Below, piece by piece: positions 5,238-6,691 of a stretch of 64,000 bases of DNA; within the stretch, counting starts at the first letter, position 1, and every line of letters begins with the position of its first letter. The stretch is from Treponemataceae bacterium. Its GTDB lineage: Bacteria; Spirochaetota; Spirochaetia; Treponematales; Rectinemataceae. The position numbers and the translations under genes were made by a program. Under the pieces are notes generated by a model. The model worked only from the letters and a program-made list of their open reading frames with translations, made no database searches and had not been told where the DNA came from. The stretch lies in assembly GCA_963678065.2 (NCBI GenBank), contig CAXXVZ010000003.1, positions 2,112,001-2,176,000 of the forward strand, read 5' to 3'.

Positions 5238-5319
5238 GAAATCCGCTCCGGTCGCATGCCTCACCTGCGCCCAGATCGCTGGCGTGGCCGTTCACCCGGA
5301 CTTGTGGCCGGGCGCAGGT

Positions 5320-5360
5320 AAAAAGGCAGCCCCCTCCTGAGGTGGAGGGGGCTGTTCATT
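5320..5360. terminator. Intrinsic terminator between the convergent transporter and corA genes
   Basis: CAGCCCCCTCC-6nt-GGAGGGGGCTG stem; A-run on the left gives a U-tail on the minus strand. Confidence 0.75.
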
Positions 5361-5392: not shown

Positions 5393-6388
5393 TCAGTGCC
5401 TGTGGGTGGCGTTCCCCACGACGATTCCGCCCGTGACAGGTCCGGCGAGCGTACGCGCCCTCCGGGGCTTGCGATCTCGCATCAGGAAGGCTCCGAGAGC
5501 TCCGCTCGAGGAGCACAGCGCAACGATTATCAGGAAGGCGCTGGGATTGTCTTCGAAGGGGACCTTGACGTTCATGCTGAACATACTGACCACGAGGGTC
5601 GGTATCATGAGCACGATCGATATGACCGTGAGGCGCTTCATGACGATGTTCAGGTTGTTCGAGATGACAGATGCGAAGGCGTCCATCATGCCCGAGAGGA
5701 TGTCGGAGTAGATGCCCGACATCTCGATGGCCTGTTTGTTGTCGGTGAGGACGTCCTCGAGGAGTTCGGTTTCATCTTCAGAGAAGCGAATGGCGCGGGT
5801 CGTCGGGAATTTTTCGAGAAGAATTTCGTTGGATTTGATGCTCGTCGTGAAGTAGACGAGAGACTTCTCGATCGACAGGAGTTGGGTCAGCTCGTGATTC
5901 TTGACCGAACGCTGAAGTTCTCCCTCGATGATCGCTGTCCTGCGGTTGATGTCCTTGAGATAGCGCAGGTAGCAGATCGCAGCCCGCGAGAACAGGTGGA
6001 GGATGAAGGCGCTCTTGTTCTTGAGGTCGAGGCCCTTGACCCGGCCGTTCCGGATCTCATCGAGGACCTCGTTGTCGTACTGACATACGGTGATGATTCT
6101 GTCGGGGAAGAGGAGCACGCCGCAGGGCACCGTGAAATAGCAGACCTCGAACCTGGCATCGTAAACGGGAAGGCGGCAGATGATGAGCGTGTACTCGTCT
6201 TCTTTTTCGATTCGCGACTGCTCGTCGATATCCATGATGTCGAGGAGATGGTCGGGATTGACTTTGTAATCCCGTTCGAGGGCGGCGAGTTCTTCTTTGG
6301 AAGGATCGACCACGTCGATCCAGGCGAATTTACCCGGTCTCTCGACCAGGGCGAGGCGTGTGCCGTCGCTGATGCGGTATTTGACCAT
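5393..6388 (-). CDS. corA: CorA family magnesium/divalent cation transporter
   Basis: WIDVVDP, DEQSRIE, SVISNNLNIVMKRLT and two C-terminal TM helices; signature reads SMN instead of GMN; GGAG SD before ATG 6388. Confidence 0.85.
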   Translation of the reverse strand: MVKYRISDGTRLALVERPGKFAWIDVVDPSKEELAALERDYKVNPDHLLDIMDIDEQSRIEKEDEYTLIICRLPVYDARFEVCYFTVPCGVLLFPDRIITVCQYDNEVLDEIRNGRVKGLDLKNKSAFILHLFSRAAICYLRYLKDINRRTAIIEGELQRSVKNHELTQLLSIEKSLVYFTTSIKSNEILLEKFPTTRAIRFSEDETELLEDVLTDNKQAIEMSGIYSDILSGMMDAFASVISNNLNIVMKRLTVISIVLMIPTLVVSMFSMNVKVPFEDNPSAFLIIVALCSSSGALGAFLMRDRKPRRARTLAGPVTGGIVVGNATHRH

Positions 6389-6398
6389 GACAAACTCC

Positions 6399-6436
6399 AG
6401 AAAGGGCAGCACACGCAGAATACGGAAATGCTGCCC
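6399..6436 (-). promoter_or_regulatory. Putative attenuator hairpin in the corA leader
   Basis: Minus strand GGGCAGCA-17nt-TGCTGCCC followed by TTTCT, immediately before the corA SD. Confidence 0.5.
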
Positions 6437-6481
6437 GGCCGGGCCCCGCACGCGACAGTCGGGGACTCGGGCCTGGAGGCT

Positions 6482-6559
6482 CTAGTCCGATTGTCCGCGC
6501 CGGGGCGTACGTATGAATGGGGATGGTGGTTCCGAATGACTAGGGTCGGAATCCGGCAT
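6482..6559 (-). CDS. Putative proline-rich leader peptide of corA (MPDSDPSHSEPPSPFIRTPRRGQSD)
   Basis: GGAGG SD 6 nt before ATG; 6 Pro in 25 codons; lies in the corA 5' leader; not in the ORF track. Confidence 0.65.
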   Translation of the reverse strand: MPDSDPSHSEPPSPFIRTPRRGQSD

Positions 6560-6691
6560 GTACGTCCTCCTTCGCGGAATAGCCTTTTCCTGACTGGAAA
6601 TGGCGGCATGTAAGCCGTAGCTGAGTATAGCGACAGAGCTGGAAAAGGACAAGAGTTTAAAGGAAATTAACGGATCGAGAGGAAATGCCGG

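Follow-up and report, generated by a model that had tools for sequence, protein, structure and literature searches.

A conserved leader ORF with a near-invariant AGU serine codon upstream of spirochaete corA genes, a candidate ribosome-based Mg2+ sensor

Results

Organization of the corA leader

The window analysed here is a 64,000-nucleotide stretch of a Treponemataceae genome, and all of the leader features described below lie on its minus strand. A corA-family Mg2+ transporter gene occupies 5393..6388, with its ATG at 6388. The initial annotation had named this gene corA, which is supported by its match to PF01544 (8.5e-54), and its match to TIGR00383 in a profile search falls below the cut-off of that model. 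Further upstream, a single sigma70-like promoter (TTGTCC-17-TATACT; 1 found versus 0.1 expected) was identified at 6624..6652, with a predicted start at ~6617. As this promoter precedes the leader ORF, the ORF should lie inside the corA transcript, and the predicted transcription start is not downstream of the ORF, as its proposed regulatory role presupposed. The ORF (6482..6559) encodes the expected 25-residue peptide, with six prolines, an EPP motif and a TPRR segment, and is led by the Shine-Dalgarno (SD) sequence AAGGAGG at 6566..6572 (its GGAGG at 6570-6566), which is conserved in our leader alignments A1 and A2. Codons 2-6 (6542..6556) specify the acidic and small residues PDSDP, a predicted ribosome-destabilising segment according to the alignments and to the rules for intrinsic ribosome destabilisation (IRD) in the available text of bioRxiv 2021.02.02.429294, while codon 7 (6539..6541) is a serine AGU that is near-invariant in the leader alignments of the family.

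The remaining parts of the leader are best described by their predicted pairing. The 3′ half of the upstream ORF (uORF), i.e. its PRRGQSD codons at 6484..6506, is a predicted anti-anti-SD strand, and its partner in the predicted ON helix, at 6443..6467, otherwise folds as part of an inner OFF structure. The anti-SD CTCCAG at 6473..6478 is predicted to pair in the OFF state with the corA SD, CTGGAG at 6395..6400, and matching anti-SD sequences occur in relatives. A GGGCAGCA/TGCTGCCC hairpin at 6404..6436 and a TTTCT tract at 6403-6399, which runs into the corA SD, are both present as first described, but comparison does not support their reading as an intrinsic attenuator. The hairpin is a lineage-specific insertion and not a conserved terminator, its 8-mer is present in only 1 of 127 leaders (that of the window itself), it is not called as a terminator by terminator prediction, and terminator-like sites occur in just 3 of 89 leaders. 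An Rfam search returned no family match in the window leader, and searches of NCBIfam, Pfam and PDB with the leader peptide gave none either. Outside of the leader, a sub-threshold Rfam Glutamine-II match at 5286-5356 overlaps a GC hairpin that lies where corA and an ArsB/NhaD-like gene converge; this hairpin is probably a terminator.

Conservation of the uORF and its acidic start

We compared 103 orthologous corA leaders of the order, 23 of them full-length and 80 more picked from 169 matching genomes. We called an SD-led uORF, 21-52 codons in length, in 81 of them, with all five families represented, so the uORF is indeed conserved in relatives as had been anticipated, and it is absent from distant corA paralogs. 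In many of the 22 orthologs with no called uORF, corA is immediately preceded by a promoter or by another gene; this group also includes one leader cut by a contig end, one weak-SD look-alike (L108) and two apparent cassette deletions recognized by eye. In the latter two (L032 and L033, compared with L007 of the same genus), the whole uORF cassette has apparently been lost through a ~140-nt deletion bounded by short repeats, with the promoter and SD retained, and they appear to be either natural constitutive alleles or assembly artefacts. Within the window's own genome, only 3 of 2,054 SD-led short-ORF matches fit the leader motif, and the window uORF is more than a chance occurrence. Promoter-like sites precede the uORF in 56 of 80 relatives, versus 27.4 in shuffles, and lie between the uORF and corA in 8 of 80.

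Third codon positions vary across the uORFs, which is a coding signature, and the conserved part of the peptide is restricted to its start (MPDSD, MSDSDGGGS, MDSDPGS and similar). Since Asp or Glu occurs within codons 2-6 in 79 of 81 uORFs, while 26 of the 81 have no Pro among their first 10 codons, acidity rather than proline is the common feature; PP is found in 28 uORFs and EPP or DPP in 7. Proline stalling dependent upon EF-P, which the initial annotation placed at the core of the mechanism, is thus not supported as a general property of these leaders. In seven relatives (L089, L090, L092, L093, L094, L096 and L098), the uORF starts 61-103 nt upstream of corA and runs out of frame over the corA start, so its completed translation would block corA directly with no hairpin needed. 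Clostridial and enteric leaders, which were sampled by transporter rather than by motif, carry an intact uORF in 24 of 30 and 22 of 29 corA leaders, respectively, one frameshifted copy and one partial locus having been left out. One enteric corL (L292, from a 1.9 Mb genome) has a one-base frameshift, and several reduced genomes have no called corL.

A near-invariant AGU codon follows the acidic start

The window leader fits a conserved N-terminus of Asp, Pro/Gly and then Ser(AGU), a feature that we defined from the alignments presented here. Among 117 distinct spirochaete, clostridial and enteric leaders, E. coli corL included, the first AGY codon is AGU in 111 (71/75 in Treponematales, 20/22 in clostridia and 20/20 in enterics) and AGC in 3, although kin are not independent and these counts overstate the number of events. 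AGT accounts for 108 of the 228 Ser codons in uORF codons 2-12 versus 18 of 645 in adjacent corA coding parts, and genome-wide for 5.7% of Ser codons in the window's own genome, where AGC outnumbers AGU by ~3.7:1. It is in frame in 72 of 75 leaders, compared with 4 and 1 for the two remaining frames, falls within codon positions 5-10, and is preceded almost exclusively by D, G, P, S, T, C, E and A, a composition of the kind reported to promote IRD (bioRxiv 2021.02.02.429294, available text). We looked for a pairing partner of the AGU common to the leaders and found none, which, together with the fixed frame and position, points to selection on the codon as the ribosome reads it. The window's own genome reads AGU with tRNA-Ser(GCT), i.e. 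by wobble, and we infer that this reading may be slow or Mg2+-sensitive here.

Several further observations concern the context of this codon. In one clade (A2 columns 37-54), a small GGGGGU/ACCCCC hairpin has the AGU codons in its loop, and in enteric corL the AGU also sits within a hairpin. The own-genome tRNA-Arg at G000 C5:740221-740296 has the anticodon GCG and no ACG tRNA was found in that genome; decoding of CGU, a frequent codon behind AGU, would therefore involve G-U wobble as well. We also considered a conserved TAG in the -1 frame around the AGU and discarded it because it is missing from several leaders (L003, L046, L049 and L088).

Association with magnesium-transporter genes

A genome-wide search with the leader pattern including AGT returned 85 matches, 71 of which precede corA (60), mgtE (9), mgtB (1) or Nramp (1), with 2 of the remainder truncated and 12 other or unknown. 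The 60 corA assignments comprise 54 by blastp, 5 by tblastn and 1 by identity with L099. These matches belong to Spirochaetota, Bacillota and a small number of proteobacterial entries, and those records bearing the same leaders that carry an organism name are from Treponema and its relatives. Searching metagenomes with the pattern lacking AGT yielded at least 120 matches, 40 of them with short flanks. Among the matches listed, AGT is found at codons 7-9 in 17 of 19 Mg-transport leaders versus 3 of 101 others (Fisher p ~1e-15 with duplicates included; 14 of 16 distinct Mg-transport leaders have AGT), and 17 of the 20 AGU-bearing matches among those listed are Mg-transport leaders. A Clostridia scan without AGT gave 16 matches in 401 genomes, two of them before Mg transporters, one of these with AAC instead. 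Pattern scans without AGT in Clostridia and Enterobacterales mostly recovered ordinary gene starts.

At mgtE loci of the order, a uORF of this type is present in 12 of 29 and has AGT in 8 of the 12. The codon is evidently dispensable for some acidic leaders, being absent from MgtL and from the other 4 mgtE leaders; L448, L449 and L454 of this order start with MHDSAD, have no early AGU and are a possible second subtype. The own genome encodes Rho, EF-P and bL31, a protein whose loss, like low Mg2+, enhances peptidyl-tRNA drop-off in IRD sensors; its MgtA-like gene has no such leader, and our searches of it found no MgtE. Two other observations arose from these searches. An SD-led MDCDPGRPGWKLLS element, an unexplained repeat, recurs in many metagenome contigs with no downstream Mg transporter (L309, L312-L314, L327, L330, L334, L344, L398 and L402). 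In addition, a CNNM/CorC-type efflux protein at L135 itself begins with MDPEPGS, and similar clostridial proteins (L202-L204) begin with MELEPEP; the former start fits the IRD repression reported for E. coli ybeX/corC, a mirror-image logic.

Predicted folding of the leaders and RNA contigs

Many leaders contain a pyrimidine stretch after the uORF stop codon that is complementary to the corA SD, while the uORF 3′ half is complementary to that same region. For 89 distinct, non-overlapping, non-enteric leaders, opening the corA start required on average 7.6 kcal/mol when the native uORF 3′ half was present, 12.4 kcal/mol when it was absent and 11.4 kcal/mol when it was shuffled (12 shuffles each). 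A total of 79 leaders were below their own shuffle mean, 4 were above it and 49 were below all 12 shuffles. When a leader's own duplexes were compared with within-family swaps, its own were better in 19 of 23 cases for family f1 and 10 of 10 for f3, with weak results for f6 (9/17) and the clostridia (14/21). In the window leader, the predicted ON helix (6506-6484 with 6467-6443) and OFF helix (CTCCAG at 6478-6473 with CTGGAG at 6400-6395) correspond to corA-start opening energies of 10.5 and 14.4 kcal/mol, respectively, a modest gap, with 10.7 kcal/mol for the post-stop RNA alone. An earlier folding design, in which 9 nt past the stop were masked and which had no control, placed the window leader among 16 of 89 that responded in the wrong direction. 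Formal covariation in a 12-sequence clade is weak, with two-sided changes at 3 pairs of the ON helix, a value equalled or exceeded by 157 of 500 shuffles, and at none of the OFF helix. Overall, the folding controls point to a translational switch that would be weaker in the window leader.

We also inspected metatranscriptome contigs from four runs (X1-X4) of one study, available as contigs only and representing small shares of each run, so that stretches not covered by a contig are uninformative. A short contig covers the leader in three of the four runs, leader-only contigs occur, and one contig extends 13 nt into corA. In run X1, one contig (depth 5.5) ends at 6392, the base of the predicted OFF helix, and is followed by an A-rich tail in sense orientation; no 30-nt window with ≥25 A or T exists anywhere in the genome, so the tail is not genomic. 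This hints, though weakly, at an RNA 3′ end in that position.

Discussion

A candidate ribosome-based Mg2+ sensor

The interpretation that we favor, and hold to be somewhat probable, is that the conserved corA leader is an IRD-type ribosome-based Mg2+ sensor with an MgtQ-like translational output, in which the AGU serves as a waiting point. In the available text of bioRxiv 2021.02.02.429294, MgtL translation is reported to abort within the first six residues, more so at low Mg2+, with small residues favoring abortion, and in that of PMC8092293, Asp2 and Glu5 of MgtQ, rather than Pro, are reported to free a masked ribosome binding site (RBS). By analogy, at low Mg2+ a ribosome whose tunnel is nearly empty and whose nascent peptide is acidic would dissociate during its wait at a slowly read AGU. 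The freed uORF 3′ half, which in the folding model draws away the RNA that would otherwise mask the corA SD, would then form the ON helix and permit corA translation. At high Mg2+, the ribosome would complete the uORF and the anti-SD would sequester the corA start; the corA message, left untranslated, may then be truncated by Rho or by decay. Because a ribosome still sitting on the window's uORF stop codon would itself open the SD (8.6 kcal/mol), the model needs prompt termination. A broader claim, that one AGU after a short acidic peptide is a cross-phylum Mg checkpoint, is more tentative, and we consider it possible but short of probable. Here, wobble decoding of AGU would set the waiting time of an unstable, nearly empty ribosome, and this would be the sensing step both of E. 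coli CorL and of many unannotated leaders, one large family, that precede corA, mgtE and Nramp genes in Spirochaetota and Bacillota. Of the sensor as initially conceived, the conserved, ribosome-read leader tied to Mg2+ transporters is retained, while its proline core and intrinsic attenuator are not.

The least improbable alternative, still an unlikely one, keeps the same ribosomal sensor and makes Rho-dependent transcription termination its main output. This is how enteric corL and mgtL operate (for corL, see PMC5314796 and PMC11552253, available text), and it would suit the presence of rho, the contig end and A-rich tail at 6392, and the leader-only contigs in three of four runs. However, the anti-SD/SD pairing is kept across clades, the post-stop spacers are short (26-132 nt) and structured, seven uORFs overlap the corA start, and one contig runs into corA; Rho action could also be secondary to blocked translation. 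Ranked below this, and improbable in our estimation, is sensing by a pause in decoding AGU, through the G34-U3 wobble of tRNA-Ser(GCU) or the supply or modification of this tRNA, with the ribosome stalling intact and the acidic residues only assisting. It would account for the 111:3 ratio of AGU to AGC against the opposite genomic preference, for the lack of a conserved pairing partner, and for L016 and L017, which retain AGU with 0-1 acidic residues, but not for the near-universal retention of acidic residues or the function of MgtL and MgtQ without AGU, and the hairpin around the enteric corL AGU could explain its conservation there.

We find two other explanations much harder to reconcile with the comparative data. 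Control of an intrinsic terminator (the GGGCAGCA hairpin and its U tail) by EF-P-dependent proline stalling, as initially proposed, draws upon the six prolines and EPP of the window ORF, the presence of EF-P and the PP motifs of some relatives. Against it, EPP or DPP is rare and many uORFs have no early proline, the Pro-Arg codons further along belong to the strand predicted to form the ON helix, and the hairpin is unique to the window leader, with a weak tail and few terminator-like sites elsewhere; we judge it very unlikely. An RNA-only Mg2+ switch with an incidental ORF is the most improbable of all: the window leader does fold better than its shuffles (z -2.9) and some uORF codon positions are fixed by hairpins, but the SD, AUG and reading frame are conserved even though the RNA folds vary from clade to clade, the AGU shifts only in steps of three, and no Rfam family matches.

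Comparison with known Mg2+-responsive leaders

The destabilisation-based sensor that we favor has counterparts among characterized systems. The initial annotation supposed that such a leader had not been described on corA; this fails, since the corA genes of E. coli and Salmonella carry the uORF corL (ysgD), for which Mg2+ regulation has been demonstrated (PMC11552253, available text). Our literature searches found no description of the spirochaete and clostridial leaders or of a fixed AGU, though earlier CorL papers may note a conserved serine; "AGU" is absent from the main text of PMC11552253, and the available text of PMC4833913 and PMC13285730 has nothing on these leaders. If our interpretation is true, ribosome-based Mg2+ sensing, so far worked out in enterics, reaches a widespread spirochaete and clostridial family that stands where no M-box is found. 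The AGU codon also provides a strong handle for finding Mg-transport leaders. The M-box (ykoK) riboswitch, RF00380, is likewise a Mg2+-transporter leader, and it has no match in the window leader or its own genome.

MgtL of enteric mgtA shares an acidic-Pro N-terminus (MEPDPTP), which reportedly causes Mg2+-sensitive IRD (bioRxiv 2021.02.02.429294), but it is Pro-rich, has no AGU, has a Rho output and precedes a P-type ATPase gene, whereas prolines are dispensable across the present family and the window leader precedes corA. MgtQ of Salmonella mgtCB is closer in its logic, as it too is a short uORF with acidic residues, and abortion of its translation unmasks the RBS, an output predicted for the present family; its action is reported to be bL31-dependent with Pro not required (PMC8092293, available text). 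A Serratia MgtQ ortholog matched our leader motif pattern, and we considered AGU as a common element and rejected it because just 1 of 12 MgtQ orthologs keeps it. MgtQ is also intergenic, lying between mgtC and mgtB before a P-type ATPase, and the window leader is not so placed.

CorL resembles the present leaders in being a uORF on a corA gene and in its start, M-D-T-P-S with Ser encoded by AGU in all 20 distinct enteric leaders, which is close to the treponemal MDTYPS and MDTEPGS, a resemblance that does not imply common descent. The two differ in that CorL starts at a UUG 200-300 nt upstream of corA and acts via Rho, a rut site and stem-loops A-E, while the present uORFs have a strong SD and an AUG ~60-225 nt upstream, different predicted folds and predicted RBS masking. 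According to the available text on E. coli, Mg2+ controls corA by way of corL and Rho (PMC11552253, PMC5314796), and corL translation is inversely related to corA and required for the Mg2+ response (PMC11552253). The same 2024 paper describes how CorL senses Mg2+ as uncertain, given its few acidic and proline residues, a question that the AGU codon makes testable by one synonymous change.
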